Shown: positions 47,049 through 64,000 of the stretch, piece by piece
Position numbering within the stretch: the stretch's first letter is position 1
Layout: the number at the start of each line of letters is the position of its first letter
Assembly (NCBI GenBank): GCA_965248355.1
Contig: OZ252098.1
Coordinates: 448,001-512,000 of the forward strand
Length of the DNA: 64,000 bases
Direction: 5' to 3'
Source of the DNA: Candidatus Latescibacterota bacterium
Lineage (GTDB): Bacteria > Latescibacterota > UBA2968 > UBA8231
Translations under genes and position numbers: made by a program
Notes under the pieces: model-generated
Database searches by the model: none
Told to the model about the DNA's origin: nothing
What the model saw: only the letters and a program-made list of their open reading frames with translations

Positions 47049-47672
47049 TTGGTGAGGTCTTCGGAACGACAGCCACCCCCAGGACGCCCTGCGCGCGCCG
47101 CCCGGGGCGGGGGCTTCGCAAGGACCGGTCCCGCATCCTCCGGGCGGGCGGCGGCCAGGGTTGTCGCCGGAGTCCTGGTCTCGGCGATGGCGGCCCTCCC
47201 CGGCTGCGGGGAACCCGAACGTCCGCTGCTGCATCCCACCGATCTTCTCGGACGCACTCCGGAGGCGCTCATGGACCGCCTGGGGGCCGCACAGATGCAC
47301 ATCGAGGAGACGCCGACGCGGATCGGCTTCCTGCGCTGGAACGACCTCGGCGGCATCCGGGTCCTCATCGCCTACAGTGACTCGACCAGCACCTACGTCA
47401 CCTACCGGTTTCCCGAGGAGGGGCCCTTCGAAGAGGAACAGGCCTTTCGCACCCTTGGACTGAGCCGGCCTTCCACGGCGGGCCGGCCCATGAAGGGGAG
47501 CCCGGCGCGGGTCTGGGATCCGGCCGGCGACCTCCCCCGTATTTCGGTCAACCCCTTTACGAGGCTGATCTCGGTGGGCCCTTTGCCGGACTGGGCCAAA
47601 CAGGGCATCCGCCACATGGAAGCCTCGGGGCCTCTGGACCTGTTGCGTCGTGAGTCCACGGAAGAGCCCTGA
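47049..47672 (+). CDS. Hypothetical lipoprotein
   Basis: Hydrophobic stretch ending in the lipobox LPGC. The start codon is uncertain. Confidence 0.55.
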   Translation: MVRSSERQPPPGRPARAARGGGFARTGPASSGRAAARVVAGVLVSAMAALPGCGEPERPLLHPTDLLGRTPEALMDRLGAAQMHIEETPTRIGFLRWNDLGGIRVLIAYSDSTSTYVTYRFPEEGPFEEEQAFRTLGLSRPSTAGRPMKGSPARVWDPAGDLPRISVNPFTRLISVGPLPDWAKQGIRHMEASGPLDLLRRESTEEP

Positions 47673-47945: not shown

Positions 47946-49841
47946 ATGCGAGTCTCTCGGTTGCTCACCGCGGTGGGCCTGAGCGCCCTTCTCGCCGGTT
48001 CCGCCTTCGCCCAGACCACGAGATACGGGGACCCGGACTTCACTGTGGAGAGGGACTGGCGCAGCGGCATGCCCATCGTGCTGACCGCCAGCACCCAGGA
48101 CATGGGGTACGAGTTCGACGGCAATCCCCTGCAGATCCCCTTCACCATCGCCGGCACGCGGGCTACCGTCTACCTGGCGGTCTACACCAGCGGCGCCAAC
48201 CCGCAGTACGGCGGGGACCCCTTCGGAGTGGGCGGCATCGGCGGAGCCGCCCTGAGGACAGCGGGCATCGACACCCTGGTGTCCCTGTCCGCGGGGGAGT
48301 CCTTCAGCGCCGGATCCCACACCATCGCCTGGGACGGCAACGACTTCAACGGCAATGCCGTGGCCGCCGGCGACTACGACTTCTTCCTCATCGCCATCGA
48401 CGACGTCTCCAAGCCGACCTGGACCGGCCGCGGCTCCTATGTGTGGAGCAGCCGGGCCTACGACTTCCGCTTCGACCCACCCGTGGTGTGGAACACCAAC
48501 GGGCAGGGTTCCAATCCGGAGGACGGCACCAGCTACGAGCAGCGGCTCGAGCGGGGCCCCATGGGCGTCGATCTGATCGCCAACGGCGACGTGCCCACGG
48601 ACTTCCTGATGCCGTGGATGGTACCGCGGCTGAAGGAGCTCAACGCCGAGATGAACCCCGACCAGTGGGACCTGTCCTTCGTCGAGATCGACCCTCAGGA
48701 TCCGAACGTGGCGTACGTGGGCAACTACGGATGCTGCGCCGGCATGCCGGGCGGCTTCTGGAAGGTCAACATCGACCTCGACAACGTCTCCACGTCGCCG
48801 GAGGAGAGCTTTGCTGATCGCGGTCACATCGTCTGGGAGCAGCGCGTCGCCGACGCGGCGCTGATGGCCGAGCACACCAAGGAGTGGCTCAGCGACGACG
48901 GTCTGATCTACATGACCCACATGGACCGCGAGGAGCCCTTCACGCCCCAGATCGTGATGTTCGACCGGGCCACGGGCGACATCGCCAACGTCATGGACAT
49001 GACGGACCTGTACGTGCAGAACCGTCCGGACACCGACACGCCCGACGCCCCGTACGTGCCGGGGCCCTTCGGCATCGACGTGGACGACACGGGGATCTAC
49101 ACCAGCGCCTACTGGATGCAGGCGCCGCGGGCGTTCCCAACGAAGTACACCCAGGATGGCGACATCATCTGGCAGAACCAGAACGGCGACGGGTTCATCG
49201 ACCGCTACACGGGCGAAGAGGCCGAGGCCCTCGGTATCGTGGTCGTCGACCAGATGGTCAACACCGACATCAGCGTCACGCGCCACGGCATCTCGGTGGC
49301 CGGCGGCTACAACGACCCGGCCTGGGGCTACATCTTCGGTCCCGATGGTTCCGGTCTGCTGCGCTTGGATCTGCCTCACATGGGTCCCGATCTCGGTGGC
49401 GAGGTGGTCATCATCGACCGCGGCGGCGAGTACGACGGGTTGTATATCCCGGTTTGCTGCAACCGCGCCGTGCAGTGGCCCTTCGACATCGTCAAGGCCA
49501 GCATCTCCGAGGGCGTGACGATGGTGACCGAGGTCGACGCGGCCCTGCCCACGGCCTTTGAGGTGAGCGATGCGGCGCCCAATCCGTTCAACCCCGAGAC
49601 CAGCTTCCGGGTGTCGATTCCCGAGACTGGAAAGGACCTTCACGTCCACATCGCGGTATACAACACAGCCGGGCAGCAGGTGGCGGTACTGGCTGACGAG
49701 CCGATGCGTCCGGGAGTCTACCAGACCACCTGGGATGGCCGGGACATGAACGGTCGCAAGGTGTCGAGCGGGGTGTATCTCTACACCGTCCGCGCCGGAG
49801 CCGATTTTGTCGAGTCGAAACGGATGACCCTACTGAAGTAG
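47946..49841 (+). CDS. Secreted acidic protein with N- and C-terminal FlgD-Ig-like domains (T9SS type-A-like tail)
   Basis: RBS AGGAGG, signal peptide ending AFA-Q, GSHTIAWDGND.NG..V.AGDY, tail APNPFNPET...WDGRDMNG..VSSGVYLY...KRMTLLK. Confidence 0.85.
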   Translation: MRVSRLLTAVGLSALLAGSAFAQTTRYGDPDFTVERDWRSGMPIVLTASTQDMGYEFDGNPLQIPFTIAGTRATVYLAVYTSGANPQYGGDPFGVGGIGGAALRTAGIDTLVSLSAGESFSAGSHTIAWDGNDFNGNAVAAGDYDFFLIAIDDVSKPTWTGRGSYVWSSRAYDFRFDPPVVWNTNGQGSNPEDGTSYEQRLERGPMGVDLIANGDVPTDFLMPWMVPRLKELNAEMNPDQWDLSFVEIDPQDPNVAYVGNYGCCAGMPGGFWKVNIDLDNVSTSPEESFADRGHIVWEQRVADAALMAEHTKEWLSDDGLIYMTHMDREEPFTPQIVMFDRATGDIANVMDMTDLYVQNRPDTDTPDAPYVPGPFGIDVDDTGIYTSAYWMQAPRAFPTKYTQDGDIIWQNQNGDGFIDRYTGEEAEALGIVVVDQMVNTDISVTRHGISVAGGYNDPAWGYIFGPDGSGLLRLDLPHMGPDLGGEVVIIDRGGEYDGLYIPVCCNRAVQWPFDIVKASISEGVTMVTEVDAALPTAFEVSDAAPNPFNPETSFRVSIPETGKDLHVHIAVYNTAGQQVAVLADEPMRPGVYQTTWDGRDMNGRKVSSGVYLYTVRAGADFVESKRMTLLK

Positions 49842-49998: not shown

Positions 49999-52095
49999 GT
50001 GACCCCGAGCAGGACTATCGCCAGGATGCTCCGTGCATTGCCGGTGATGGCCGTGGCCTGTGGCAGCGCGGTCACCGCCGACGATCATCTCGTCGATCTG
50101 GACCGGTGGCGAACTGCGATTCACTACCGGAACACCTTCGCCGCCGCAGGGGCCCGCCCCGGCACGCTGTACGTCGCCGCCGTGGACAGTTTCCAGGTCT
50201 GGTTCAATGGGGCGCCGGTGGGCGAGGACGCCGCAGCCCGCCGCGCCGCCGCGATCCCGGTCGAGCTGGTCAACGGCGGTAACCACATCGCCGTCAGGGT
50301 TGTGAACCACGGCCTTGGAGAGGGACACGGCATGGTGGCTCTCGTCGCCGCAGATACGCTGGTGGGCGTACATACCACGACGGACCGCAGCATCCAAAGC
50401 TGGTACTGGAGCGCGGCGCCCCAGGATGGCCCCGACTGGACCACCGAAGAAGCGGAGGATCTCGAGTGGAGCCTGGTCCAGAATGGCACCTTCGACCTGG
50501 CAGGTGTGGAGGGCCTGCCCGCCGGGGCAAGGGCCGCCGTGGCCGGCTTCCCTGGCGGGATCGACGCCGGCCATCCCGAAGGAGGCCTGCGGCTGAAGCA
50601 GATCGACGGCCAGAACCTGGCCGTCGGCACGCCGGCCAACCGCATCGAGGTCGTCGATGGCGATCTGAACACCTCCTGGGATCCCCCGGTCAACGCCCTG
50701 AACTTCACCGCCAGCCTGGACCTGCAGGTGAGGCGCAACATCCACACCCTGCGCGCCCTGACGCGGCCTGGCCGCAGCGCACAGGACTTGGAGGCCAACT
50801 CCCTCCGCGGCTATTCGGTGCACATCAGCGACGATCAGATCCGCTGGTCGGAGGTCGGCGTGCTGCGGGGCATCACCGAGTTCGCCAGCACCGAGGTGAC
50901 GTTCCTGCCCACCTGGACCCGTTACATCCGCCTGGTCATCATGGAGATCAATGCCATCACCCAGCCCCGGGTGGCGGAAGTAGAGGTCTACGGATCCGGT
51001 CACACTGACCGCGGAGCCTTCGTCTCCGAGCCACTGGACTTCGGACTGACCGACACGGCCAGGAACTTCGGCCGCCTGTGGTGGCAGGCCGACGTGCCGG
51101 AACGCACCCAACTGTCGGTGCAATTCCGGAGCGGTCATACGCAGGAGGATTTCAGCGACGCGGAGGCGGGCTGGAGCCGGGCCTTCAGCGGCCACGGAGA
51201 CACCCTCTGGTTTCCCTCGGCGGAGCCGGCCCGCCTGCTGCAGTATCGTGTCAGCATGTCGACGCGCGACGACACCCGGACGCCCCTCTTTCGCCAGCTT
51301 GTCATCGAGAGTTCCCAGGATCTGGCCGTCACCGAGGCGCGGGCACACGTCAGTCCGAAGACGGCGCGTATCGGCGCAGATACGACGTTTCAGTATACCC
51401 TGGACCTGAGCTTTGGCGAAGGGGCCCAGGGCGTGGAGCGTCTGGCCATCGAGGTCCCGAGCCAGGCCGAGTTACTGACGGTTTCCGGCCTGGGCCCTCG
51501 ATCCGTGAGTACCTGGTCATCGACGCAGCGCAGCCTGCAACTGGAATTCGACGAGCCCTTGCGGGAGGATACCCAACTGGTCATCTCCTTCCGCACCAAG
51601 ACCTTCGCCACGGCCCACAGCTTCCGCTCCGCCCTGTTCTCACCGGGCTCGGAGAACCCCCTCAACCTGCAAGAGAACACGAGTGTCGACGAGGAGACGG
51701 GGGAGGCCCTCTCCTGGCACTTGCTGGCCATCCTGGCTCCCCAGGAGGTCCTGTCCCGCGTGCGGCCCAATCCCCCGGCCTTCTCCCCGAATGGCGACGG
51801 GATCAACGACTTCACGGTGATCGAGATGGTGCTGTCCAAGGTCGACATCCCCGCGCCGGTAAAGGTCGAGATCCATGACCTCTCGGGCCGCCGCGTAGCG
51901 AGTCTGGGCGAGGCGGGGCTGACGGCAGGCACCTACTTCTCGGATGCCTTCACCGGCCCCGGGAGTCCGGGGTACTGGGACGGACGCGACGGAGCGGGCG
52001 CGCTGGTGCCCCCGGGCCTGTATCTCTACCGCGTGGAGGTGCAGCTCGACACGGGTGACGAAGTCTCGGTGGGAACCGTGGCCGTCGCCTACTGA
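49999..52095 (+). CDS. Secreted protein with discoidin/F5-8-like domain and FlgD-Ig / gliding-motility-CTD-like tail
   Basis: Signal peptide, VVDGDLNTSW...LDL...Y.V.ISDD..RW...RYIRL...VAEVEVYG, tail PNPPAFSPNGDGINDF...WDGRD..G.LVPPGLYLY. Confidence 0.8.
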   Translation: MTPSRTIARMLRALPVMAVACGSAVTADDHLVDLDRWRTAIHYRNTFAAAGARPGTLYVAAVDSFQVWFNGAPVGEDAAARRAAAIPVELVNGGNHIAVRVVNHGLGEGHGMVALVAADTLVGVHTTTDRSIQSWYWSAAPQDGPDWTTEEAEDLEWSLVQNGTFDLAGVEGLPAGARAAVAGFPGGIDAGHPEGGLRLKQIDGQNLAVGTPANRIEVVDGDLNTSWDPPVNALNFTASLDLQVRRNIHTLRALTRPGRSAQDLEANSLRGYSVHISDDQIRWSEVGVLRGITEFASTEVTFLPTWTRYIRLVIMEINAITQPRVAEVEVYGSGHTDRGAFVSEPLDFGLTDTARNFGRLWWQADVPERTQLSVQFRSGHTQEDFSDAEAGWSRAFSGHGDTLWFPSAEPARLLQYRVSMSTRDDTRTPLFRQLVIESSQDLAVTEARAHVSPKTARIGADTTFQYTLDLSFGEGAQGVERLAIEVPSQAELLTVSGLGPRSVSTWSSTQRSLQLEFDEPLREDTQLVISFRTKTFATAHSFRSALFSPGSENPLNLQENTSVDEETGEALSWHLLAILAPQEVLSRVRPNPPAFSPNGDGINDFTVIEMVLSKVDIPAPVKVEIHDLSGRRVASLGEAGLTAGTYFSDAFTGPGSPGYWDGRDGAGALVPPGLYLYRVEVQLDTGDEVSVGTVAVAY

Positions 52096-52110: not shown

Positions 52111-54825
52111 ATGATCGGCATGACTCCCACGCCGGGCAGGGGGCGCTGCCGGCAGGCCGTGAGGGCCGGCCTGGGAGCCCTCATGGGGCTGCTGGCCGCA
52201 GCCGGCGATTCCGGGGGGCAGTCCCTCGACCGGGACATCGAGTGGGGATACCAGCAGTTCCTGACGCGCGAGTACCGGCCCTTCTGGGACGAGCGCTACG
52301 AGAATCTGTCCTTCCTCAGCTACCGGAACTTCCCCATTCGAGGGGAACAACCCAGGTACGATCCTTTCGGGCTGTACCTGCTGGACGGCAGCGAGATCCT
52401 GCGCATCGAGGAGTACCGGACCTTGGATCCGGGCAACAGTTCCCGGATCCCCACAGGCCCCAGTTTCGGACAGTTTCGGAACCTGGTGATCATGCGCGAC
52501 CACTACGGCAGCTGGTCGACGCGGCTGATGCTCGGACAGCGCCTGAAGGCACACCTGTCACCCCTGGCGCACGCCCGGGCCACCTTCGACGGCATCCGCT
52601 GGGACGCATCCTCTCATCGCAACATGATCTCCATCCTCACATCTCGCGTTTCCCACCGGCCCGCAACAGCTCCCCGGGCCACCCCTTTCGGAACCTACCT
52701 CTACGGGGGGCGATGGCAGAGCCAGCTGGGGGATATCGCCACCTTCGGGGCGACCTACGCCGACGTCCACCTGCGCGACACCTCGCAGAGAAAGGGGGAT
52801 TTTCGCGGTGTCTTTCCGAAGGATCTGAACCCGGCGGACTCCTACTTCGTGATCGTCAGTGACGACAGTCCCGAGGACGGTGTCGGGCCGCTGGTGTACG
52901 CCGTCGAGATGTGGTCTCAGGGGAGGCGGATGGAGGCCCAGGCCGAGGTGCGCTGGGTCCTGGGTGCGGCTCGCTCCGATGACGTGGCCCACATCCGCAG
53001 GAACGGGTCCTGGGCCGTCCTGTCCATGGAGGCCGACCGGTTGTTGAAGCCGGTACAGCCGGGAAGGGGACGTTTCTACAGCAGCGGCATCCCCGCTGTG
53101 GTCGATGGCCGGGGCACGGAGGTGGCCGGTACCGACCTGCTCGTAATTCGATTTGACGCGCCGCCCGAGACGGAGGATTTGCACTTCCGGGTGTTGGCTT
53201 CGGGTGACTACAACCTCGACCTGGGCGCCTCCTACGTGCTGGCGGGGGTGCCAGACCGATCCTGGTCCGACTGGCACAACGTGACCCGGGCCCCGGGCAA
53301 CGTGCGCGACGGATCCAACCTTGGCTGGGTGGATCTCTACTACGGCTTTCCCACGGGCCTGGCGAATCTCGGCGCCGATATCGAGATCGACCTGTGGGAT
53401 GTGGAGGTGAAAGGCGAGTACGTCCGCAACACCTCGAACTACCAGCTCCCGATATTCGGCGATCATTCCCGGCGGCGCACGGCGGCGTGGTACCTCAAGG
53501 GCGTGCGCCGCATGGGCGAAGGCTGGCGGCTGGGCGGCGAGATTCACCACATGCCGTCCGACTACGTCAACTCTCTGCCCATGTGGTCGCACAGCACCCG
53601 CAAGGTCCTGGCCTACCACATGGTAGAGGACAACGACGACCGCGACGAGTGGCCGGACGAGTACGAACACTGGGATCCCTTGCACCCCACCTACGTCACC
53701 AACAAGCGGAACAACGTCGACGTGGACGCGGCCCTGTCCGAGGTCAGCCGCGACTACGGCTTCGGGGGGGACTTCACCTACGGCGTGTACCCGGGTCTCG
53801 ACGCGGACCAGGACGGGGAGCCGGACACCAACGTCAACCGGAACGAGTTCGCCGACTACGTGGAGCCTTTCCTGATGTACTACGTGGAGCCGGACGAGTT
53901 CGTCTACGGAGATGACTTCAACAACAACGGCGTCGTGGACCCCCGCGAGAACGACAACCGCCCCGACTATCCCTATCCGCTCGATTCGGATGGCTACCAC
54001 GTCTTCGGCAGCTTCCTGGGCGGAGCGGGCCGGGTCCAGGCCCGCATCGGCCGTTACGAGTTGCACCAGGCGGCCGGCGACGGCCGTAACGAGGTCTCCT
54101 ATGCCGAGGCCCGTTACCGGTGGCGGAGTCCGCGCTCCGGCAGCCTCGATCTGCGTGGCCGCCTTCGACGGGTGAAGGACGACATCCCCGACCCCACTTA
54201 CATCACGATCGTGGAACCCCTGTCGGCGACCAACCGGGCCACGGCGATCCATCTCGACCGGTTGCTGACGCGGAACAGCCTGGTCAACACCGTCTACGCC
54301 GGGTCCGTGTACGATGGTGTAGCCGGCCTGACCGTGGTAAACGCCACCAAGCTGGACGTCAATCGCCGCCTGGATGACCGGCGAGGCATGGGAAAGACCA
54401 TCACGGACTGGACGTGGGTCAGCAAGGCGGACTACGCCTGGGGTTTCTCCGAGCACCTGACTTTCACTCCCATGGCCAAGCTGCTGGTGCAGCGCCTCGA
54501 CGGCCCCGGCGACCTGATCGCCGACCGGCACACGTGGGAGTGGTTTCCGATCCTGCGCCTCGACCTTTCCTTCAGCCAGTCCACGGGAATCCGCACCGGC
54601 GTGCAGGGGTTTCCCTTCAAGCACCTCTACCGCCACGCCGAATCCAGGTCCTCCAACTTCGACGCCCGCCACTACGTGGTCACCTTCCACACCCGGCGGA
54701 GTTACACCGGCTACAACGCCAGCATCAATGTCGGCTTGCGCCGCAGCCGTGAGGAACTGACAAACCTGCAGGCCGGGAGCGTGCGGGACTTCACCCAGTT
54801 CTTCGTCCAGGCGCGGATCCTCTGA
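52111..54825 (+). CDS. Large predicted outer-membrane protein, paralog 1 of 3 (unknown family)
   Basis: Signal peptide, alternating aromatic beta-strand pattern, acidic DNDD/DxDxDG/NNNG module, shares motifs with the next two genes. Confidence 0.75.
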   Translation: MIGMTPTPGRGRCRQAVRAGLGALMGLLAAAGDSGGQSLDRDIEWGYQQFLTREYRPFWDERYENLSFLSYRNFPIRGEQPRYDPFGLYLLDGSEILRIEEYRTLDPGNSSRIPTGPSFGQFRNLVIMRDHYGSWSTRLMLGQRLKAHLSPLAHARATFDGIRWDASSHRNMISILTSRVSHRPATAPRATPFGTYLYGGRWQSQLGDIATFGATYADVHLRDTSQRKGDFRGVFPKDLNPADSYFVIVSDDSPEDGVGPLVYAVEMWSQGRRMEAQAEVRWVLGAARSDDVAHIRRNGSWAVLSMEADRLLKPVQPGRGRFYSSGIPAVVDGRGTEVAGTDLLVIRFDAPPETEDLHFRVLASGDYNLDLGASYVLAGVPDRSWSDWHNVTRAPGNVRDGSNLGWVDLYYGFPTGLANLGADIEIDLWDVEVKGEYVRNTSNYQLPIFGDHSRRRTAAWYLKGVRRMGEGWRLGGEIHHMPSDYVNSLPMWSHSTRKVLAYHMVEDNDDRDEWPDEYEHWDPLHPTYVTNKRNNVDVDAALSEVSRDYGFGGDFTYGVYPGLDADQDGEPDTNVNRNEFADYVEPFLMYYVEPDEFVYGDDFNNNGVVDPRENDNRPDYPYPLDSDGYHVFGSFLGGAGRVQARIGRYELHQAAGDGRNEVSYAEARYRWRSPRSGSLDLRGRLRRVKDDIPDPTYITIVEPLSATNRATAIHLDRLLTRNSLVNTVYAGSVYDGVAGLTVVNATKLDVNRRLDDRRGMGKTITDWTWVSKADYAWGFSEHLTFTPMAKLLVQRLDGPGDLIADRHTWEWFPILRLDLSFSQSTGIRTGVQGFPFKHLYRHAESRSSNFDARHYVVTFHTRRSYTGYNASINVGLRRSREELTNLQAGSVRDFTQFFVQARIL

Positions 54826-57554
54826 TGGCCATCGGTCGGACAAAGCGCGCGGCCTCCCTCGTCCTGCTGCTGACGCTGGCGGCGGATCCGCCTTCCCCGG
54901 CGACGGCCCAGATGCTGTGGGACAACGAGGAGTGGCGCTACGTCAACTACGCTCGACAGGGATACCGGCCCTATACCGGCGGCGTCTGGTCCGAGTTGCG
55001 CAAGCCCGCTTTCGACGAGCTCGGCAACTACCTGATGCAGGGGGTCCAGGTCTTTCGCACCGAGGAAGCGCGTGAGAACGATCCCCTGGCGGGCAGCCTG
55101 GTGGACGAGTCGGTGGAGTACCGCATCAATCTCAACCGCCTCGTCATCGGACACGACTCCTACGGGGACCGGTCGAGCCGGCTCATGGTGGGGGACTTCA
55201 TCCGCACGAAGTTCAGCGCCTTGACCCTCGACCTGGCCTCCCTGAACGGCGTGCGTTGGGATATCGACCTGAACCCCACCCAGGTCACCCTCGTGTCGTC
55301 GCGTATGGACTGGCCCATCTTTCCCTCGGGGAGGCTGCTGGCGCGGACCGACCGCGACAACGAGGCGCACCGGGAGCGTCGTTGGTCGACCTACCTGCTC
55401 GGCGGCCACGTGGGGCGCCGATTCGGCGCCTTGAACCTGGGCTTCAACTACGTGAACCTGCACCGCACCGACAGCCTGGTCGACTGGGGGGACAACAACA
55501 TCCGCGGCGTGCTCCCCTCGGCCGTCAACCGCCCGCCGGCCTGGATTGCCGTGCGGGTCAATGACGGATCCGACGAGGACGAGCAGGGGGCCCGGGTCCA
55601 TGAGATGCGGATCAAGAACCCCGAATTGGCCCACGTGGTGGCGGATGTGACCCTGCACGACACGGAGGTGATAGACCAGTCCTATCCGAATGGCGACCAG
55701 TTCTTTCCCCAGGGACGCCGTATCCCCCCGTACGTGCAGTTCCTGAAGGGAGAGTTCCCGCCCGCCCAGCGCCGCGCGGAAGGGTATCACCAGGCCGACG
55801 GGACGAAGTATCTCATCTTCTGGTTCCAGATCCCCCACGAGCTCCGGGACACGATCTCGGAGGTCGAATTCGAAGCCCTGGTATCCGACGACTACGACAT
55901 CGAGCTGTCGGAGGTCTTCCTCCCCATCAGCCGCGAGACCTCGAGCAACCCGTCCATCAGCGGCGAGCGGGCGACCTACTACTACTCCGTGGCTGGATCC
56001 AGGGGCAACGTCAGGGATCAGTCGAATCTGGAGTGGATCGAGTTCTCCTACGGCCGCCAGACAGGACGCACCACCGCCAGCGTGCGCATGGAGTACGAGC
56101 GTCCCGGCTTCGAGCTCACGGCGGAGCTGGCCGGCACGTGGGACTTCCGCCAGCATTCGTCCACTGCGGGCCGAAAGGCGTGGCAGGCGACCCGTGCCCA
56201 GGGCTGGTTCGCCAACTTCGAGAAGCACTTGGCGGGCCTGGTGGTCGGCGGCGAGCTGTTCCGCATGGACCCGCTGTACAGCACCCTGGTGTCGGCGGAG
56301 GACCCCGAGTACTCGAGCTACTCCGACGATCTCAACAGCCCCTTCGGGATCCCTCACTCCTTTCCCATCGACCGCAACAACACGGTCGATATGGATACCG
56401 TCGACGACAACGACGACAAGGACCTGGCTCCCGACTTCCACTTCCTTCCCCACTTGCAGGATGCCAGCGTGCTTCCGGGCCGGGATCTCGACCTCGACGG
56501 TCGAATCGACGACAACCAGAATGGCAACGGCATCCCCGACTACCTGGAGCCGTTCTTCCTCTATCACTCCGATCCCGCCGAGTTCGTATACGGCGACGAT
56601 CTCAACAACAACAACATCATCGACCACCGCGAAGACGACCGTGCGCCCGACTATCCGTACGACGTCGATCTGGAGGGCTACCACCTCTTCGTCGATCTCG
56701 ATCCGCTTCGTGACCTGCGCATGCGTCTTGGGCGCTTCCGCACCGAGGAGATCTGGGGCGGAGGCGGCAACGACGTGAACTATGCCCGGGTGGACTACGA
56801 GCGCACCTTCTTTCCCTTTGGCAAGGTGTTGCTCACGAATTACCTGAAGAAGGTGCGCGACGACATCGAGAACGATGCCCCCTTCCTGTCCGTGTTCGCA
56901 CCGAACCAGCTGCCGCTGCAGCCGGGGACCGGGGTCGGCTCCTTGCTGAACGTGCAGGTGGCGGACGAGTTGTGGATGCGCGACAGCCTGGTGAACACCA
57001 GCTACCTCGATGCCACCCTCTTCCGCTTCGCCAACCTCAATATCAACAACCGCCTCAAATACCAGTCGAACTGGCAGCGCGAGACCCCCTTCCAGCCCGC
57101 CAACCGGCTGGCGGAGTGGTCCTGGGTCCTGCGGGCGGAATACGCCTGGCGCCTGCGGGGCCTCACGGTCCGGCCGCGTCTGAAATACATGGTCTACCGG
57201 CGATCGGACCGGGAGGCGCGGCGCTACCCGGTGTCCGAGCGCTATTTCTATCCCATGCTCATGGCCAGCTACGCTCTCACGGACCAGACGACGATCTCCG
57301 GCGGCGCCCAGGGGATCCCCTTCCTGGAGGCCCGCTTCCGTGACCTCACCCATCCGGATACGGACTGGAACTCGCGGGACTACATCATCTCCCTCACCAA
57401 CCGCACCACCTACCAGGGCCAGCAGCTGAGCCTCAACATGGGCTGGCACCTGCAGGTGGTCGAGTTCCAGGAGAAGGCGCGGCGTGACGAGGGCGTGGAC
57501 CGCTCCTTGTTCTTCCTGCGCCTGATTCTCGGCGCCGAGCCTTTCAAGGGGTGA
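54825..57554 (+). CDS. Large predicted outer-membrane protein, paralog 2 of 3 (unknown family)
   Basis: TGATG coupling, signal peptide ending ATA-Q, same motif order as paralogs 1 and 3. Confidence 0.75.
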   Translation: MAIGRTKRAASLVLLLTLAADPPSPATAQMLWDNEEWRYVNYARQGYRPYTGGVWSELRKPAFDELGNYLMQGVQVFRTEEARENDPLAGSLVDESVEYRINLNRLVIGHDSYGDRSSRLMVGDFIRTKFSALTLDLASLNGVRWDIDLNPTQVTLVSSRMDWPIFPSGRLLARTDRDNEAHRERRWSTYLLGGHVGRRFGALNLGFNYVNLHRTDSLVDWGDNNIRGVLPSAVNRPPAWIAVRVNDGSDEDEQGARVHEMRIKNPELAHVVADVTLHDTEVIDQSYPNGDQFFPQGRRIPPYVQFLKGEFPPAQRRAEGYHQADGTKYLIFWFQIPHELRDTISEVEFEALVSDDYDIELSEVFLPISRETSSNPSISGERATYYYSVAGSRGNVRDQSNLEWIEFSYGRQTGRTTASVRMEYERPGFELTAELAGTWDFRQHSSTAGRKAWQATRAQGWFANFEKHLAGLVVGGELFRMDPLYSTLVSAEDPEYSSYSDDLNSPFGIPHSFPIDRNNTVDMDTVDDNDDKDLAPDFHFLPHLQDASVLPGRDLDLDGRIDDNQNGNGIPDYLEPFFLYHSDPAEFVYGDDLNNNNIIDHREDDRAPDYPYDVDLEGYHLFVDLDPLRDLRMRLGRFRTEEIWGGGGNDVNYARVDYERTFFPFGKVLLTNYLKKVRDDIENDAPFLSVFAPNQLPLQPGTGVGSLLNVQVADELWMRDSLVNTSYLDATLFRFANLNINNRLKYQSNWQRETPFQPANRLAEWSWVLRAEYAWRLRGLTVRPRLKYMVYRRSDREARRYPVSERYFYPMLMASYALTDQTTISGGAQGIPFLEARFRDLTHPDTDWNSRDYIISLTNRTTYQGQQLSLNMGWHLQVVEFQEKARRDEGVDRSLFFLRLILGAEPFKG

Positions 57555-60421
57555 GTCCGGTGAGGCGGTTCCACATTCTGGCCCTGCTCCTGGCAGCGAC
57601 GGCCGTCTGGGGGCAGCGGGACCAACCGGGGGGTGACACGCCCTGGCTGGACAAGGAGGAGGACCCGCCGGATCGACTGGGCGTCACCCGCGTGGTGCCC
57701 GGCGAGGAGTTCCTGTACCGGGCCTGGGCGGACTACGAGAACTACGGCATCCGCGACTTCCAGCTTCCAGAGACCTCCTGGCAGGCCCGCCGCAACCACT
57801 ACGGCCCCATGGGGAACTTCCTCCTCAACGGCTACGATTCCTACCGGTGGCTGGAAACGCGGGCCAACTCGAGCCGCGGCGACGCGCCCAACAGCACCTT
57901 GTCGAAGTCGAACATGGGCATCTTCCAGCAGAACCTGGTGGCCCGGGAATCGCACAAGGGCTGGGCGACGGCGCTGATCCTGGGCGAGGAGATGCGCACG
58001 AAGTTCACCCCTCTCACGCTGAGCCTGGCGGGCATCAACGGCGTGCGCCTCGACGCGCAGCGCCAGTTCCCGCAGTGGTCGACCCGGTTCACGGCCCTGG
58101 CCTCGCGCTGGAGCGCCCCCGTGTGGACGGGGAACGTTACGGGCGAGCAGCAGGACACGCGCCGTACCCTCTCCATGCTCATGGCCGCCCACTCCGACGT
58201 CCAGGTAGGCCGCCTCGTCACCGGCGGCACGGTGATCAACTATCACAACGCCGACGCATACCAGGAGTCCTTCAACCTCAAAGGCCAGCTCCAGTCCGGC
58301 CAGGTCAAGCCGAGCTTCGTCGTGGTCAAGTTCTCCGACGACTCGCCTTTCGACGAGGAGGGCGGCGCCGTGATCAATGACGTCTTCCTCGTCGTCGACG
58401 GCGTCGAGCGCCACGACCTGCAGCCGACCTACGTGCGCGTCAACTCCAGGAATCCCACGGCACTCGGGCGCTTCAACCGGCTCACGGGTCAGTTCAACCG
58501 CACCATTTACAACGACGGCGGGATCCGGTTCGCCGACTACTTCTATCGCCTCGACCAACTCTCCGGGCAGGAGGTGAGCAACGTCAACCTCGAGGAGTTG
58601 GAGCGCTTCATCCAGGTCGTGCCGCCCACGGCCCGCCTGGAGGCGAGCGGCGACTGGGTCATCCTGGCCTGGTTCGATCTCCGGGCCGAGCCGTCGGTGC
58701 GCTCCGTCGAGGTGCGGGCCCTGGTGGGAAACGACTACCGCATCGACGTGGTCGGGCTCTTCGACGACGATCCGCGGCAACGGACCTACGAGGGCCGCTG
58801 GTCGGCGGGAGGCATCGAGGGGCAGGCGAGGGCCAAGGGCAACGTGCAGGACCTGTCCAACCTCGGCTGGGTCAGCATCGACGCCGGAGCCTGGACGGGA
58901 CGCTACGTGCTCGGCTGGAACGGCTCCTGGGAAGGACGGGATGGCCGGATCCGCTGGGAGTACGCCCGCAGCCTCGACTACTTCCGGTATCCCGACGGAC
59001 CTCCGGGACACCGCCAGCCCAAGGAGATCACGGGTGTCCGGATCTGGAAAGGGGAGGTGAGCAGGCACACGGAGCACGCCTACTACGTGACCGCCGAGTG
59101 GGGGCGCGGTCTGTGGGAAGCCGGTGCCGAGGCGTTCTCGCTGCCCGACCGCTTCAACCGCCACCTGCCCACCACCTCCACCTTCGCCCTGGCCCGTACC
59201 GATGGCTTCGTGGAGGACAACGACGACAACGACAGCTGGCCCGACGCCGGCCCGGGAGACCGGCCCCGGCACTTCGGAGACAAGTCCTCCGACCCGGACG
59301 GGGTCTTTCCCGGCAAGGACGAGGACAACGACGGCATTCCCGACACCAACCGCAATCAGAACGACCTGCCCGACTACGAGGAAGCCTTCCTTCTGTTCTA
59401 CGTGGAACCCGACGAGTACGTCTACGGCCGCGACTGGAACCACAACGGCGTCGCGGATGAGCGCGAGGACGACCTCGAGCCCGACTTCCCGTACCAGCTC
59501 GGTCAGGCGGGCGCCCACGTGTACGGCCGCCTGAACCTGAGGAGCCGCTGGCTTCCCGGGGTGTTGACCCTCGGCCTCGGCCGTCTCGACGCCGAGGGCA
59601 TCGCCAACGGAGGACGAAACGAGAGCGACTACGGTCAGCTCATCTGGAGGGCCGGGGTCCCCGGCGTGGCACAGGTTCGCTTTGAGACCCTTCTCGAACG
59701 GGTCCACGACGACGTGGCGAATCCGTACTACCGCCTCGACGAGATCCTCGGCGAGCCCCTTGGCAGCGGCGGCTTCACCTTTGCCGGCGCCACGGCCTAC
59801 CACCGCGTCGTCGTGCGCGATCCCCTGGAGTGGCGCAACAGCACCGAGCGCCAGCACTACCTGCAGTGCGAGTTGCAGCCCCTGCCCGGGCTGAGGCTGT
59901 GGGGCAACCTGCGCCATTCCCTCAACGAGCAGAAGGGCGGCGTCCTCATCGAGGGCCGCGACCTGGGGCCGGACGAGATCAGCCTGTGGACCTCGGTCAT
60001 CAAGGCCGAGTACGTCTGGGAGCCGACCCGAAGCTGGCAGATTTTCGGCCAGGCCAAGGGCCTGCTCCTGCGCGAGGACCGGGTCAGTGTGGCCACGGAC
60101 CTGCAGGACCAGCGCACCTTCGTGCCCATCGTCAAGGGCCGCTATGCCCTGACGCCGCGCACCGACCTGTGGCTCGGGGTGCAGGGCCTGCCCGGGCTGC
60201 CCCTCGTGGTGAGGGACCGGGCGGACGGGTTCAACTCCCGCGAGGAACGGGTCTGGGTGGCGCAGCTGACGAACAAGTCTCCGTACCTCGGCTACGACAC
60301 CGCCATGACCCTCGGCGTCAAGAGCGTCGATCGCGACTACCAGGATCCGACGCGGGAGCTGGAGGACATGCAGGTCCTCTCGATCTTCCTGCGCATCCTG
60401 CTGGGCTACACCATCGACTGA
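57551..60421 (+). CDS. Large predicted outer-membrane protein, paralog 3 of 3 (unknown family)
   Basis: GTGA coupling, signal peptide ending VWG-Q, same motif order as paralogs 1 and 2. Confidence 0.75.
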   Translation: MSPVRRFHILALLLAATAVWGQRDQPGGDTPWLDKEEDPPDRLGVTRVVPGEEFLYRAWADYENYGIRDFQLPETSWQARRNHYGPMGNFLLNGYDSYRWLETRANSSRGDAPNSTLSKSNMGIFQQNLVARESHKGWATALILGEEMRTKFTPLTLSLAGINGVRLDAQRQFPQWSTRFTALASRWSAPVWTGNVTGEQQDTRRTLSMLMAAHSDVQVGRLVTGGTVINYHNADAYQESFNLKGQLQSGQVKPSFVVVKFSDDSPFDEEGGAVINDVFLVVDGVERHDLQPTYVRVNSRNPTALGRFNRLTGQFNRTIYNDGGIRFADYFYRLDQLSGQEVSNVNLEELERFIQVVPPTARLEASGDWVILAWFDLRAEPSVRSVEVRALVGNDYRIDVVGLFDDDPRQRTYEGRWSAGGIEGQARAKGNVQDLSNLGWVSIDAGAWTGRYVLGWNGSWEGRDGRIRWEYARSLDYFRYPDGPPGHRQPKEITGVRIWKGEVSRHTEHAYYVTAEWGRGLWEAGAEAFSLPDRFNRHLPTTSTFALARTDGFVEDNDDNDSWPDAGPGDRPRHFGDKSSDPDGVFPGKDEDNDGIPDTNRNQNDLPDYEEAFLLFYVEPDEYVYGRDWNHNGVADEREDDLEPDFPYQLGQAGAHVYGRLNLRSRWLPGVLTLGLGRLDAEGIANGGRNESDYGQLIWRAGVPGVAQVRFETLLERVHDDVANPYYRLDEILGEPLGSGGFTFAGATAYHRVVVRDPLEWRNSTERQHYLQCELQPLPGLRLWGNLRHSLNEQKGGVLIEGRDLGPDEISLWTSVIKAEYVWEPTRSWQIFGQAKGLLLREDRVSVATDLQDQRTFVPIVKGRYALTPRTDLWLGVQGLPGLPLVVRDRADGFNSREERVWVAQLTNKSPYLGYDTAMTLGVKSVDRDYQDPTRELEDMQVLSIFLRILLGYTID

Positions 60422-60429
60422 GAAGGATC

Positions 60430-63400
60430 ATGTTTGCCTGGATCACATTGGCTCTGATCGTCGCCTTCTACGGGGCCACTCGCAACGTGCCCACGGCCGA
60501 CGAGATCAAGGCCTCCTTCGACCACGGCCAGAAGTTCTACTCCTCCGGCGCCTATGATCAGGCCATCGGCGAGTACCGGTCGATCCTCAAGAGCGGCAGC
60601 TCGCTTTTGAGGATGGAGGGCGTCACCGTCTCGGTGGGCGACATCGAGGCGCCCCTCCAGGAGGTGGCGACCTACCAGATCGGCAACGCCCATCTCAAGA
60701 TGGCCGAGGAAGCCCTCGAGCGACGCTCCCGGGCCCGTGACCTGGAGACGCAGCAGGACCTGCAGGCCCGGGCCGGAGATCTCCTGGCCGAGGCCATCGA
60801 CTACTTCGAGATCACCGAGGAGCGGGCCACGGTGGACGTCCTGCGGGCCCTGGCCCGCAGCCAGATCATCACCTGCCACTACAAGCGCGGGGACTATGAA
60901 GGCACCATCGATGCGGCCCTGACCCTGATAGAACATTACCCCGCGAGCAAGTACGTGGTGCAGGCCATGTACGACATCGGCTGGGCGTACTTCGACATGG
61001 AGGAGTACGCCTCCAGCGCCGGCGCCTTCGAGAGGCTCGTGAAGCGCTTTCCCTCCGGGTACCGAGGAAACCGGGCGCTGTTCCAGATCGGCGAGTCGTA
61101 CTTCCGGCTGGAGCGCTACCGTGACGCCATCCCGCAGTTCCGGCGCCTTGTCGAGTCGCAGCGAATCGGCCAGATGTCGCAGCGCGAGTTGCTGGTCATG
61201 AAGCGCGAGAAGCTCGCCGGCCTGGTGGACGAGACGGCCCTGGAGCTGGCCGCCAAGGCGATGATCCGCCTCGGCGAGTGTTACGAGCGAATCGGCGATT
61301 ACCAGGAGGCGAGCCGGGCCTTCGAGACGGTGGCGACGCAGTTCCAGGAGGAGCAGCGGCTGGCCGAGGAAGCCTACCTCCGCCACGCGGATATGCACTA
61401 CAGCCGCGGGGACTTCGAAGCCTGTATCGCCGTATACCGGAAGGCCATCGAGAACGACCCCGACATGGGGGACAAGGCCCGACTGCAGCTGCTGATGGCG
61501 AACCGTTACTTCGAGACCGAGCACTATCCGGAGGCGGCCCTGGAGTACACCATCTACCGGGATACGTACGCCATGTGGGCGGCTGCCGCCGGCCTGCCCG
61601 TGGAAGGAGTGGGCCTGCAGATCGCGCGGGCCTGGTTCCGGCGGGCGGCCCTGGTGGAATCGGCCCGGCGCCTGGACCCGTACCGGCGCGCCGAGGCGGA
61701 ACTGAAGACCACCCTGCGCGCCTATCGGGGCTCGGCGTACGATGTGGAGTTGCGCTTCAATCTCGGCCTGGCCCTGGAGCGGCAGGAGGACGAGGCCAAG
61801 ATCACCGAGGCCCTCGCCCTCTACCTCGACCTCATCGAGGATCCCCAGTCCGGCGGCTACCGCCAGAGCGCGCGCTTCCAGGCCGCCCGGATCCTGCACG
61901 ACCGCCAGGATTTCGGGGCCGCCGCCGACCAGTACCGCCGGGTCATCCTGGAGATGGCGGACCGTGCCGAGGTGCAGATCGCCCGTTTCGAGCTCGCCAA
62001 TGTCCTGCGCGACGCCGGGCGGCTCGACGAGGCCGTCGCCGCATACCGCGAGGTCGATCCCGAAGCCGAGTTGTTCGCACGCTCACGCCTCGAGGCCGGG
62101 CAGTTCCTGCTCTCCGCCGGCCGCACCGGCGAGGCGATCCCCATCCTCGAGGAAGGCCTGGCGCCGCAAGGAGAGGCCGACCGGGAGACCCTGGCCCTGC
62201 TGCACTACCTGCTTGGCGCCGCCCATTCAGGCCTGGAGCAGCACGAGGCATCCGTGCCCTGGTTCTCCATGGCCATCGAAGGGGGCGTGGAGACCGTTCT
62301 GGAGCAGGCCGTCTACGGACGTGGACTGGCCAATTTCCGGATGGGCCGCTTACAGGAGGCGGCTGCAGACCTCGATCGCCCGTGGCAGCAGACGGAGTTC
62401 CTGAGCTCGGCTTCCAGACTCCTGGCGGCCTGCTACACGCAGCTCGATCGGACCGACGAGGCCCTGGAGGTATACCAGAGACTCGCTTTGGAGACGGAGA
62501 CGGTCCTGGAGGAGGCGGAGTTCCGTCTGGCACACGCCGAGATCCGCTATCGGCAGGGCGGCTACGAGGAGGTGGTCGAGGCTTGCCGCGCCATCGAAGC
62601 CCTGGACGTGACCGAGACGGAGTTGCCGAGGTCGCGGCCGTACTACGTGCTCGAGAAGTCCTACTACCTGAAGGCCGACGCCTCCCTGCGGCTGAATCGA
62701 TTGACCGACGCGGCCGGGGCGGCGGCCAAGGGCTGGCAGCGGTTTCCAGGCGGGTATTTCGCGGCCGATTTCCTCTTTCTGCGGGGCCTGGCCGACCTGC
62801 AACTCGATGCCAACGAATCCTCCGTGGCCTCCTTCACCCGGATGCTGCAGCGCTTTCCCGACCACGGCAATGCCCCGTACGCCCTCTACTACCGAGCCTA
62901 CGGATACTTCAACCAGACCATGTTCCGGGAGGCGGAAGCGGACTTCCACCGCCTGCTGCGCGAGCACCCGGAGATCGATGTCGCAGCCGACGCCGCCTTC
63001 CGCACGGCCGAGTGCGTGTACAACCTCGGCCGCTTCGCCGAGGCCGCAGGCGCCTACCAGGCCTTTCACGACCTCTTCCCGTCGACGCCGCTGGCCGAGG
63101 AAGCCCTTTACAACGTCGCCTGGTGTCATCTGAACAAGCGCGGCGAACTGGGACGGCACGAGGCCGAGGCACGGCGCAGCCTGGAAACCTACCTGGAGGC
63201 CTATCCAGGGGGACGTTGGGCGTCCACGGCGCGGTACACCCTGGCGGAGATTCGCTACAACGCCGGGGAGTACGACGCGGCCTACGGGATGTTCGTGGAC
63301 ATCGAGGAGGAGTTCCCCGGCACGGAAGCGGCACGCCGCGCCGCCGGGGCTCTCCCGGACCTCAGGGAAGCCGTGGCCTACAAGGCCTACGAAGCGGCCA

Positions 63401-63681
63401 TGGAGGAATTCAACTTGGCCGTGGAGAGCGAGAGCGACGACGACGTGCGGGCGGTGATCCCCCGGCTCGAGGTGATCTGGGAGGAGTATCCCGGAACCTC
63501 CAGTGGCATCGGCGCACGTGTGAACATGGCGGTTGCATACCAGAAGCTGAGGCGGTGGAGACAGGCGGTGGAAATCTTCGACGAGATCGTCGCCGCCTCC
63601 GAGGGCGGCGCTCCGGTGGAACCCAATGTGCTGGCCTTCTGCCAGCGCCGCAGCGGCACGATCAGGAGGAAGCACCTGTGA
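60430..63681 (+). CDS. 1083-aa tetratricopeptide repeat protein with N-terminal membrane anchor/signal
   Basis: RBS AAGGA, MFAWITLALIVAFYG, many BamD/CpoB-like TPR units (AMYDIGWAYF, ALFQIGESYF, ALYYRAYGYF, ALYNVAWC, ..YP.S/..FP.). Confidence 0.88.
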   Translation: MFAWITLALIVAFYGATRNVPTADEIKASFDHGQKFYSSGAYDQAIGEYRSILKSGSSLLRMEGVTVSVGDIEAPLQEVATYQIGNAHLKMAEEALERRSRARDLETQQDLQARAGDLLAEAIDYFEITEERATVDVLRALARSQIITCHYKRGDYEGTIDAALTLIEHYPASKYVVQAMYDIGWAYFDMEEYASSAGAFERLVKRFPSGYRGNRALFQIGESYFRLERYRDAIPQFRRLVESQRIGQMSQRELLVMKREKLAGLVDETALELAAKAMIRLGECYERIGDYQEASRAFETVATQFQEEQRLAEEAYLRHADMHYSRGDFEACIAVYRKAIENDPDMGDKARLQLLMANRYFETEHYPEAALEYTIYRDTYAMWAAAAGLPVEGVGLQIARAWFRRAALVESARRLDPYRRAEAELKTTLRAYRGSAYDVELRFNLGLALERQEDEAKITEALALYLDLIEDPQSGGYRQSARFQAARILHDRQDFGAAADQYRRVILEMADRAEVQIARFELANVLRDAGRLDEAVAAYREVDPEAELFARSRLEAGQFLLSAGRTGEAIPILEEGLAPQGEADRETLALLHYLLGAAHSGLEQHEASVPWFSMAIEGGVETVLEQAVYGRGLANFRMGRLQEAAADLDRPWQQTEFLSSASRLLAACYTQLDRTDEALEVYQRLALETETVLEEAEFRLAHAEIRYRQGGYEEVVEACRAIEALDVTETELPRSRPYYVLEKSYYLKADASLRLNRLTDAAGAAAKGWQRFPGGYFAADFLFLRGLADLQLDANESSVASFTRMLQRFPDHGNAPYALYYRAYGYFNQTMFREAEADFHRLLREHPEIDVAADAAFRTAECVYNLGRFAEAAGAYQAFHDLFPSTPLAEEALYNVAWCHLNKRGELGRHEAEARRSLETYLEAYPGGRWASTARYTLAEIRYNAGEYDAAYGMFVDIEEEFPGTEAARRAAGALPDLREAVAYKAYEAAMEEFNLAVESESDDDVRAVIPRLEVIWEEYPGTSSGIGARVNMAVAYQKLRRWRQAVEIFDEIVAASEGGAPVEPNVLAFCQRRSGTIRRKHL

Positions 63682-64000
63682 TGGACCGTCTATCGGTTCT
63701 TCGCTACGGACGCAGGCTCCTCTACCTGGGCCTGGTGGCGTCGGTGGCTCTCCACCTGGCGGTCGGTGCGGTCTGGCTCCTGCCGGAGGACGAGGAGGAG
63801 GAGCGGGTTGTGGCCCGTTTCGAATTCGAGGAACAGGACACGCCGCTCTTCGTGCCGGCGCCGCGGCTGGCGCGCGAGTTCGCCTTCCGCAAGCAACCGA
63901 TCCCCCAGGGCACGCCCATCGTGCGGTCCAGCGGCGACGAGACGTCGACCACCGTGGGCGGCGCCGTGGGCCGCGTGCGCATGTCACCCACCTCGGCCAC
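63681..64000 (+). CDS. TonB/TolA-like membrane-anchored protein (3'-truncated; absent from the ORF track)
   Basis: TGATG coupling to the TPR gene. MDRLSVLRYGRRLLYLGLVASVALHLAVGAVWLLPEDEEEE... has a TM helix with the SxxxH motif. No stop before the window edge. Confidence 0.6.
   Translation, partial: MDRLSVLRYGRRLLYLGLVASVALHLAVGAVWLLPEDEEEERVVARFEFEEQDTPLFVPAPRLAREFAFRKQPIPQGTPIVRSSGDETSTTVGGAVGRVRMSPTSA

Follow-up and report, generated by a model that had tools for sequence, protein, structure and literature searches.

Paralogous barrels of a Latescibacterota operon as candidate parts of an ExbB/ExbD-coupled import machine

We analysed 64,000 nt of DNA from Candidatus Latescibacterota bacterium (GCA_965248355.1, contig OZ252098.1, 448,001-512,000 of the forward strand; hereafter the window), in which three adjacent genes, A, B and C, encode collinear paralogs, very probably large outer-membrane barrels of an unnamed family. 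The reading that we prefer, tentatively and at slightly less than an even chance, is a gated import machine powered by protons, in which A and B would form a fixed core and C could be exchanged. Its parts differ in strength: the barrels are likely to belong to an ExbBD-coupled machine, the case for import as the function is evenly balanced, and the assembly of A, B and C into one oligomer is somewhat doubtful.

To our knowledge, TonB-dependent transporters (TBDTs) are the single well-known class of energised outer-membrane importers. If the import reading is true, a second, unrelated barrel family would be wired to ExbB/ExbD over several FCB phyla. In Latescibacterota the family has grown to 40-80 copies per genome and would represent a major unread part of feeding in uncultured, often sponge-associated bacteria. 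A third barrel that can be swapped beside a fixed pair would be uncommon among the designs of outer-membrane proteins; the matter also bears on the handling of T9SS type-B cargo beyond Bacteroidota, and the single-copy operon of Ignavibacteria offers a way to test the machine in a cultured relative.

The operon and its three paralogs

The genes and features of the cluster are as follows.

47049..47672, + strand: small ORF of up to 207 aa that opens the cluster and may encode a lipoprotein
47946..49841, + strand: U2, secreted, with a FlgD-Ig / T9SS type-A-like C-terminal domain (PF13860, E 4e-15; TIGR04183, E 1e-4, below cut-off)
49999..52095, + strand: U1, secreted, with an F5/8 (galactose-binding-like) domain (PF00754, E 1e-8) and a T9SS type-B-like C-terminal domain (CHU_C, E 8e-6)
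52111..54825, + strand: predicted barrel A, 904 aa, position-1 clade, fixed partner of B
53623..53976, + strand: acidic module of A (DNDD / DxDxDG / DxNxNG), residues 505-622, 32 D+E against 7 K+R
54825..57554, + strand: predicted barrel B, 909 aa, position-2 clade (AlphaFold2 model)
55503..56057, + strand: Ig-like beta-sandwich insertion of B (predicted fold)
56400..56660, + strand: acidic module of B, predicted to lie inside the barrel
57551..60421, + strand: predicted barrel C, 956 aa, position-3 clade, the independently multiplied class
59210..59494, + strand: acidic module of C, residues 554-648
60427..63681, + strand: TPR protein, 1,084 aa, with an N-terminal hydrophobic segment, matches to many TPR families and six YbgF-like stretches
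63681..64000, + strand: start of a membrane-anchored DUF4159 protein of 398 aa (PF13709, E 3e-31), which continues beyond the window

The stop and start codons of A/B and B/C overlap, and U1 ends 16 bases ahead of the start of A. Contigs from the RNA libraries of two sponge studies covered A, B and C and bridged U1-A, A-B and B-C, though such contigs are no proof of a single transcript; they were sparse at 44.5-47.1 kb, upstream of the cluster, and give neither level nor start. A scan for promoters and terminators gave a result at chance level. Profile searches of Pfam and NCBIfam matched no family to the first ORF (47049..47672); a gene resembling it by eye stands before the sister operon at G000 150535.

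BLASTP aligned A with B at 27.6% identity over 934 aa (E 2e-77), B with C at 26.3% over 948 aa (E 2e-66), and A with C at 27-30% in two pieces (E 6e-52 and 1e-10). On these alignments the three are genuine collinear paralogs, 26-30% identical and similar far above chance. The original prediction had listed a collinear motif set, and every motif was recovered in A, B and C in the same order; the terminal F(F/L/V)..(R/L)IL proved exact in A and B but only loose in C (IFLRILLG). None of the proteins has a terminal Phe, as had been claimed, since they end in L, G and D. The C-terminal aromatic beta-signal is absent from all three, whereas an aromatic residue (F, Y or W) closes 9/10 single-copy relatives from other phyla, so the missing Phe is a derived state. 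The accessible text of PMC10629564 describes the classic C-terminal signal as wanting in several barrel types.

The motifs had also been called unrecognised, and rightly: at E<0.3 neither Pfam nor NCBIfam had a family that matched A, B or C. The two collections gave no PF07715 plug and no TBDT barrel family, and Pfam gave neither an SLH domain nor PF11751 (PorP/SprF, 14-stranded proteins of ~300 aa), a profile without a match in this genome and with matches in 4/5 others. A PDB sequence search returned no significant relative of the barrels (best E 0.54 and 0.035), and the ESM Atlas returned hypothetical clusters only; the nearest, DUF6029 at 0.89, is no more than a lead, and the insertion domain had no match. 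N-terminal hydrophobic leaders were read off the barrel sequences without a predictor. The literature searched, main texts without supplements and few subscription journals, gave no description of the barrel family or the operon, and DUF4159 was mentioned in a single Pfam paper.

Predicted fold and the acidic module

A barrel fold is very probable for A, B and C. AlphaFold2 modelled B (pLDDT 87.9, pTM 0.88) with 23 long antiparallel strands and short N-terminal strands, probably 24-26 in all, and the transmembrane barrel that the original prediction had supposed is borne out in this model. Covariation recovered 18/22 neighbouring-strand ladders. As to closure, covariation between first and last strand was at noise level, and about 20 strands track the curvature of LptD; mutual information and a weakly regularised covariation run were both dominated by noise.

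The acidic module of B appears in the model to plug the lumen. In structural alignments it falls on the residues that form the plug in FhuA, BtuB and ButC, and it covaries with the barrel-strand residues K647, E744 and Q801. Across 157 homologs, 14 D/N/E positions are nearly invariant, and the module is the most conserved region in all three classes (61-66% vs 35-52% elsewhere). The acidic modules may bind Ca, and that of A, to which the plug role is carried over from B, is a predicted Ca-binding plug. Modelled alone, the insertion of B reached a pLDDT of 87.9 and had no clear structural match (best Z 5.1, rmsd 3.7 over 109 residues); strand alternation would place it on the extracellular side. 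In the C class this domain is longest and most variable in length (median 220 aa).

Like TBDTs, including SusC/SusD, the present system has an outer-membrane barrel with a predicted plug, homologs of ExbB/ExbD, a single-pass anchor in which SxxxH is often present, a domain resembling TonB-C, binding proteins at the surface and many barrels per motor. It differs in its predicted strand number (more than 22, against 22 in TBDTs), in a predicted plug formed by an internal acidic loop rather than an N-terminal domain, in the absence of PF07715 and PF00593, in its large TPR and DUF4159 partners and fixed A-B pair, and in binding proteins with T9SS-like tails instead of lipid anchors. LptD and the fimbrial ushers (26- and 24-stranded) are of similar size, and 349 residues overlay LptD at an rmsd of 5.3. 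Fimbrial ushers insert their plug mid-sequence. Neither group, however, gave a sequence family match, and plug and gene context differ. IsItABarrel 'Hypothetical type 1' is a 24-stranded class in the accessible text of PMC10629564 and bioRxiv 10.64898/2026.03.07.710327; the former gives Proteobacteria and Firmicutes as the source of all its types, a range different from that of the present family.

The top match in all three fold searches was SlpA of Deinococcus radiodurans, a 30-stranded homotrimer (Z 13.7-14.8, rmsd 5.4-8.4 over 350-426 residues). SlpA_C (PF21620) was not matched in A, B or C and gave weak, sub-threshold local matches in 6/14 B homologs and in a KSB1 homolog, the latter scoring best at 32.7 bits (cut-off 35). 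According to the accessible part of PMC9388160, metal-binding insertions lie within the lumen of SlpA, and the protein is proposed to be a scaffold, not a pore. The acidic, putatively metal-binding modules described here could likewise belong to a structural scaffold, in which trimeric, metal-stabilised, plugged barrels tether the outer membrane via the TPR protein and arrange a coat on the cell surface. We regard this as improbable, as FhuA scored within about 1 Z unit of SlpA, A, B and C lack the SLH domain, and the B model has fewer strands and no coiled-coil stalk or long helix. Moreover, a scaffold leaves unexplained both the linkage to ExbB/ExbD and the dozens of divergent C copies per genome. 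Foldseek found no close barrel (TM-score to the query <=0.26), and absence from such lists does not amount to a new fold.

Neighbouring genes and the candidate motor

Single-barrel operons of Ignavibacteria, KSB1 and Kryptonia combine a type-B-like cargo gene, a PorP-like barrel, the big barrel, a 1,050-aa TPR protein, ExbB, ExbD and a membrane-anchored DUF4159 protein, and in 4/6 of the non-Latescibacterota loci listed ExbB and ExbD lie downstream of barrel and TPR. This proton-driven motor in the operon of the relatives points to an unstudied way of nutrient import. In the genome of the window, ExbB is near 3/5 triplet operons, and every one of the 7 close paralogs of the large TPR is 6.5 kb or less from a barrel gene. 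The DUF4159 anchor carries SVALH, an SxxxH motif that we take to be of the TonB/TolA type, and the product of the next gene (395 aa) contains an AgmX/PglI (TonB-C-like) domain (NF033768, 49.6 bits, cut-off 40). Energising by ExbB/ExbD via a TonB-like protein is suggested by gene linkage. Against the import machine, this operon lacks its own ExbB/ExbD, and the ExbD-like genes closest to it are ~19 kb off on the other strand; the anchor His is missing in 13/31 DUF4159 partners, including those of the three ExbB-bearing sister operons; and the number three is not conserved, because singles and pairs exist in other branches of the barrel family.

The genome also has SprA above cut-off, intact at 2,061 aa, together with PorV-like genes, and SprA may export U1 and U2. 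The C-terminal domain of U1 bears the motif FTPNGDGxND and a terminal Tyr (consensus from 57 loci); CHU_C and TIGR04131 matches of such type-B-like cargo were near or below cut-off. U2 has five close paralogs, one ahead of each triplet operon. GldL, GldM and GldN were unmatched in this genome, and GldM was unmatched in five others as well; no control matched either, and nothing is concluded from these searches.

The barrels could instead form a surface display platform of a non-Bacteroidota T9SS, taking and anchoring SprA-exported type-B-like cargo via a PorP-like shuttle, with ExbBD powering hand-over or positioning and no import. Such a platform is unlikely in our judgement, although much of the neighbourhood would suit it. 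Of the 29 cargo genes of this type, 27 have a barrel-family gene at 10 kb or less, against 6.3% of the genome, and only 2 PorP-like genes of the single-copy-operon type face these 29 cargo genes in this genome. The order cargo, PorP/PorV-like barrel, big barrel is kept in 6/6 of the single-copy operons listed (PF11751 above cut-off in 2/4 scanned), and cargo genes number at least 146 and at least 150 in two genomes with many barrels of the non-triplet branch. There is precedent in the accessible text of PMC9143113, where type-B cargo of Bacteroidota is anchored by a cognate barrel. As in PorE-PorP-PG1035 and SprB-SprF, type-B-like genes here stand beside barrel and TPR genes, with U1 next door as putative cognate cargo. 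Unlike those systems, however, the barrels are ~900 aa and not 14-stranded 300-aa proteins, the cargo ends in Tyr, and ExbB/ExbD are linked. Anchoring needs no conserved plugged lumen, and genomes with 31-41 C barrels have just 2-6 cargo genes. SprA occurs in 146/151 phylum genomes and the barrel family in 94/151. A complex prediction for a single-copy barrel (L061) with the C-terminal domain of its neighbour (score 0.00, mark 0.32) was neutral on binding.

Since SprA is present in barrel-less families too, the barrel family is not a core T9SS part; this role and that of a split SprA are both ruled out, the SprA of this genome being intact.

ExbB with two ExbD, in the layout of AglR/Q/S, occurs in a sister operon and in relatives and is absent at this copy. 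Together with the TonB-C-like domain, the large TPR and three barrels with a core pair, it recalls the Myxococcus Agl-Glt system, for which the accessible text of PMC11761067 gives GltA and GltB as core pair and GltH as accessory. A traction or envelope-trafficking machine of that kind, with motor, TonB-like transducer, TPR scaffold, three outer-membrane barrels and a surface adhesin, matches the parts list in outline, and the downstream AgmX/PglI domain scored above cut-off. It is nevertheless very improbable. GltA, GltB and GltH are 209-275 aa (PMC3169522, accessible part), so the present barrels are three to four times larger, and no sequence link to them was found. No GltG with FHA domain was seen, the downstream gene scoring only 29.5 of 650 bits for GltG, and the only matches of TPR neighbours to Glt-family profiles were of a weak, generic kind. 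Substrate diversity would account better than a single motility machine for five divergent operons per genome and for dozens of copies of C.

Clades, copy numbers and possible assembly

Within this genome a quick tree resolved position-specific clades of 5+5+6 sequences (SH-aLRT 100/99/98), and a wider tree placed 24/24/37 of 157 sequences in the A/B/C clades, in line with the three clades that had been anticipated. These clades co-diverge over 22 operons (patristic r 0.94-0.95, which linkage alone predicts as well). Co-occurrence as a fixed set, also anticipated, did not hold up. Six single-contig genomes have A:B:C ratios of 1:1:41, 1:1:33, 1:1:31, 1:1:1, 5:5:8 and, in this genome, 5:5:6, and these C copy numbers (1-41) against a constant 1:1 of A and B rule out an obligate 1:1:1 trio.

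The three barrels could also be independent channels that share operon and motor and never co-assemble, each a monomer or homo-oligomer. A single gene is enough in Ignavibacteria, KSB1 and Kryptonia, each chain resembles a complete barrel with its own plug, and C copies stand by themselves in the genome. Yet A and B lie side by side at 1:1 in 9/9 cases in five genomes, in 5/5 in this genome and in 19/19 loci chosen with a B query, while the monomer model leaves the conserved N-terminal YxNY motif disordered, as if it required a partner; we consider independence quite improbable. The original prediction had offered complex subunits or channels, and both may hold, with A-B as a non-redundant core and C as a specificity unit in a putative physical complex.

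In the import machine that we prefer, A, B and C would be outer-membrane barrels, each shut from within by an acidic plug that Ca probably stabilises, and each bearing an outward-facing Ig-like domain. ExbB/ExbD would drive the membrane-anchored DUF4159 protein and the TonB-C-like protein, which would act on the barrels via a periplasm-spanning TPR scaffold, with A-B as fixed core and C as exchangeable specificity unit. Lectin-like U1 and U2, exported by the T9SS, would catch substrate at the cell surface. The imported material would most likely be large or scarce organic substrates, as with TonB/SusCD but through another barrel. More speculatively, and with rather low confidence, this may be a new class of energised outer-membrane transporter: a hetero-oligomer of giant barrels in which a constant A-B is coupled to TPR/DUF4159/ExbBD and any of dozens of C sets the substrate, with a Ca-bound internal plug in place of a TonB-box plug and T9SS-exported lectins as lids, descended from a homo-oligomeric ancestor that survives in Ignavibacteria, KSB1 and Kryptonia.

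A single Ton motor serves many TBDTs. In the three C-rich genomes, 31-41 C barrels stand against no more than 1-3 large TPRs and 2-6 genes for type-B-like cargo, which suggests that many barrels share few scaffolds. C-only loci (n=7) had no match to ExbB, ExbD, DUF4159 or type-B-like cargo within 10 kb; their neighbours are DUF6785/6784 membrane proteins and catabolic genes, the latter given without a genome background. Replacement of TBDTs by the barrel family is ruled out by 18 TonB-receptor plug matches in this genome and by matches in all 151 phylum genomes. DUF4159 has 1-2 copies in nearly all genomes of barrel-less families (one has 4) and 2-15 in the family of the window.

Three divergent paralogs predicted to form barrels

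The cluster contains three ORFs, A, B and C, each translationally coupled:

52111-54825, + strand, barrel A
54825-57554, + strand, barrel B
57551-60421, + strand, barrel C

The original prediction of tandem divergent paralogs was borne out by end-to-end alignment (26-30% identity, E down to 2e-77), and its collinear motif set is present in order in all three proteins, the last motif being only loose in C. A, B and C have no sequence relative in Pfam, NCBIfam or PDB. In the ESM Atlas, the closest clusters consist of hypothetical proteins, mostly labelled Latescibacterota or Gemmatimonadota, and the titles of related records are mostly Candidatus Latescibacterota. Family matches occurred in 94 of 151 sampled phylum genomes, including 63/63 in the window's family and 0 in four other families, and 429 clusters at 50% identity matched the family with E<1e-30. 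A profile built from A, B and C detected 28 family genes or gene pieces at 14 places in the window's 5.5-Mb single-contig genome (G000), five of these places being A-B-C triplet operons.

When 25 full-length paralogs were placed in a quick-search tree, each of the three operon positions formed a single clade (SH-aLRT 100, 99 and 98 for positions 1, 2 and 3). The triplication therefore came before the duplication of the operons and is old, as had been proposed. The expected three-clade structure of homologs was also recovered by FastTree from 157 sequences (24 from the window's genome and 133 from loci L049-L121, fragments <750 aa excluded), with 24, 24 and 37 sequences in the A, B and C clades, plus separate branches occurring singly or in pairs. 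Barrels of L072 and L112, titled Chitinophagaceae and Myxococcales, grouped with Ignavibacteria and Latescibacterota copies, and may be mislabelled records or transferred genes. At L010:4302-8343, a single-barrel family copy is interrupted by a Mutator-family transposase.

Predicted structure of B and its acidic module

The predicted transmembrane barrel was supported by an AlphaFold2 model of mature B, built with 82 sequences (pLDDT 87.9, pTM 0.88), in which 23 long antiparallel strands span residues 78-875, with four short N-terminal strands besides. The alternation of short and long turns in this model suggests a total of 24 or 26 strands. Of the 22 ladders between neighbouring strands, 18 were recovered by covariation across 313 near-full-length homologs, the nine best ladders all being neighbouring pairs, though these sequences overlap the AlphaFold2 input and the agreement is not independent data. 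The N-terminal YxNY motif is kept in every branch, yet is disordered in the monomer model. The best whole-protein structural match was SlpA, a weak one (Z 13.7-14.8, rmsd 5.4-8.4) with which FhuA ties; the SLH domain of SlpA was not found in the barrels, nor its coiled-coil stalk in the model of B, and an SlpA-like scaffold appears improbable.

Judged by strand alternation, two large insertions of B lie on the outer side, namely an Ig-like sandwich, for which no close structural match was found (Z at most 5.1), and the D/N/E-rich acidic module. The latter is the most conserved region in the A, B and C classes alike; when structures are aligned, it falls on plug residues of FhuA, BtuB and ButC, and covariation links it to residues 647, 744 and 801 of the barrel strands. 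We read it as a putative internal plug of the barrel. It may also bind Ca, judging from its DxDxDG-like motifs, which we take to be a sign of Ca binding.

The constant A-B pair and the variable C barrel

Among 19 related loci holding both A and B, selected with a B query, A adjoins B in every one, and C lies directly after B in 14, is lost at the contig end in one and is displaced in four. Class-specific N-terminal profiles were used to count copies in five further single-contig genomes (G156-G160), a non-random sample chosen for detached C copies or other branches. Class A (at least 237 bits vs at most 164 for others) and class B (at least 214 vs at most 155) separated cleanly; the C cut-off of 135 bits lies just above the scores reached by A and B (at most 134), and copies down to 139 bits fall inside the C clade. 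A:B:C was 1:1:41 in G156 (where some copies sit in short frames and may be disrupted), 1:1:33 in G157, 1:1:31 in G158, 1:1:1 in G159, 5:5:8 in G160 and 5:5:6 in the window's genome. An obligate trio is not seen: A and B, 1:1 in all six genomes, may form a non-redundant core, but C varies from 1 to 41 copies, and the other branches are single or paired. Barrels working as independent channels seem quite improbable.

In the C-rich genomes, large TPRs number 1-3 and genes for cargo with T9SS type-B-like C-terminal tails 2-6; in G159 and G160, where other branches abound, such genes number at least 146 and 150, respectively. Around a constant A-B core, then, it is either the C barrel or the cargo that a lineage diversifies. 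Uncorrected for genome background, the neighbours of detached C copies included amidohydrolases, PhyH dioxygenases, BNR proteins and DUF6785/6784 membrane proteins. The DUF6785/DUF6784-type inner-membrane family, named from L092 members, has 27 genes in G000 (e.g. 546299-548275), eight of them within 13 kb of barrel loci. A second, nearly identical C gene lies just upstream of a sister triplet on the opposite strand (L001:2500-5295; G000 147499-150294, minus); branch lengths between the duplicated C genes are 0.05, and L050 has the same layout.

Gene neighbourhood and candidate mechanism

At this locus, the genes for U2 (secreted, type-A-like tail) and then U1 (secreted, F5/8 domain and type-B-like tail) precede A, B and C. 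After the barrels come a 1,084-aa TPR protein, a DUF4159 protein whose membrane anchor bears SxxxH, and a protein whose AgmX/PglI domain is TonB-C-like. Part of the window was found in eight RNA-library runs from two studies, four runs being labelled sponge metagenome; in the four runs whose contigs were aligned, these cover A, B and C and bridge U1-A, A-B and B-C, and give no level, strand or single-transcript information. Ignavibacteria, KSB1, Kryptonia and Bacteroidota-labelled bins have one barrel per operon, with an aromatic last residue in 9/10 single-copy barrels. All six single-barrel loci examined run from cargo through a PorP/PorV-like gene to the barrel, and four continue with TPR, ExbB, ExbD, DUF4159 and lipoprotein genes, one of the other two ending at a contig edge.

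We tentatively favour an energised, gated import machine, its complex, transport and substrate being proposals. ExbB/ExbD would drive the anchored DUF4159 protein and the TonB-C-like protein, the TPR protein would span the periplasm, A-B would form the constant outer-membrane core, C and surface lectins would confer specificity, and the acidic plug would be the gate. Counted against a motor role are the absence of ExbB/ExbD from the window's copy, the presence of ExbB near 3/5 triplet operons and a missing anchor His in 13/31 DUF4159 anchors. An Agl-Glt-like traction machine is very unlikely. In outline, the proposed import machine would work similarly to Ton/SusCD, but the barrels tested negative as TonB-dependent transporters, and also as PorP members. 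We regard the system as a probable variant of ExbBD-powered envelope machines on an unnamed barrel family; that it is a new transporter class is doubtful. A literature search found no description of the barrel family or operon, and the comparisons draw on PMC9143113, PMC9388160, PMC3169522, PMC10994853, PMC10629564, PMC11761067 and bioRxiv 10.64898/2026.03.07.710327.

A platform displaying T9SS cargo is a less likely alternative, on which the cargo distribution bears: 27/29 type-B-like cargo genes have a gene of the family no more than 10 kb away, vs 6.3% of the genome. The tail profile was built from these same genes, but a second one, made independently from 57 loci, likewise gave 29. About 90 type-A-like tails occur in G000, where SprA (above cut-off) and PorV-like genes were found; SprA is present in 146/151 phylum genomes. 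GldL/M/N gave no match in G000 in a search lacking a working positive control. SprA and a PorU-like/PorV-like pair lie at 426938-433123 and 4989446-4994324 of this non-Bacteroidota genome. Two PorP/PorV-like genes of equal score and identical terminal sequence (G000 233334-234200 and 909331-910242), one preceding large TPR, ExbB and ExbD genes near a barrel pair, may serve all 29 type-B-like cargos.

A dedicated SurA/PPIC-type foldase (L004:10033-11694 and five other loci) goes with the non-triplet barrel branch; each of the six close paralogs has a barrel gene no more than 5 kb away, and none was seen beside triplets in G000. Secreted proteins, most of ~300 aa and some CBM9-like, end in AVE..SW(G/A).(V/I)K (L004:242-2304, about 20 other genes and window 16753-17193), which may be one more short signal for export; seven of these genes are close to non-triplet barrel loci. 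The cluster is immediately preceded by genes for a secreted sulfatase (minus) and a 519-aa TPR protein (window 43088-46856), and three small genes at 8534-9807 resemble, by eye, nitrile hydratase beta, beta-like and alpha.
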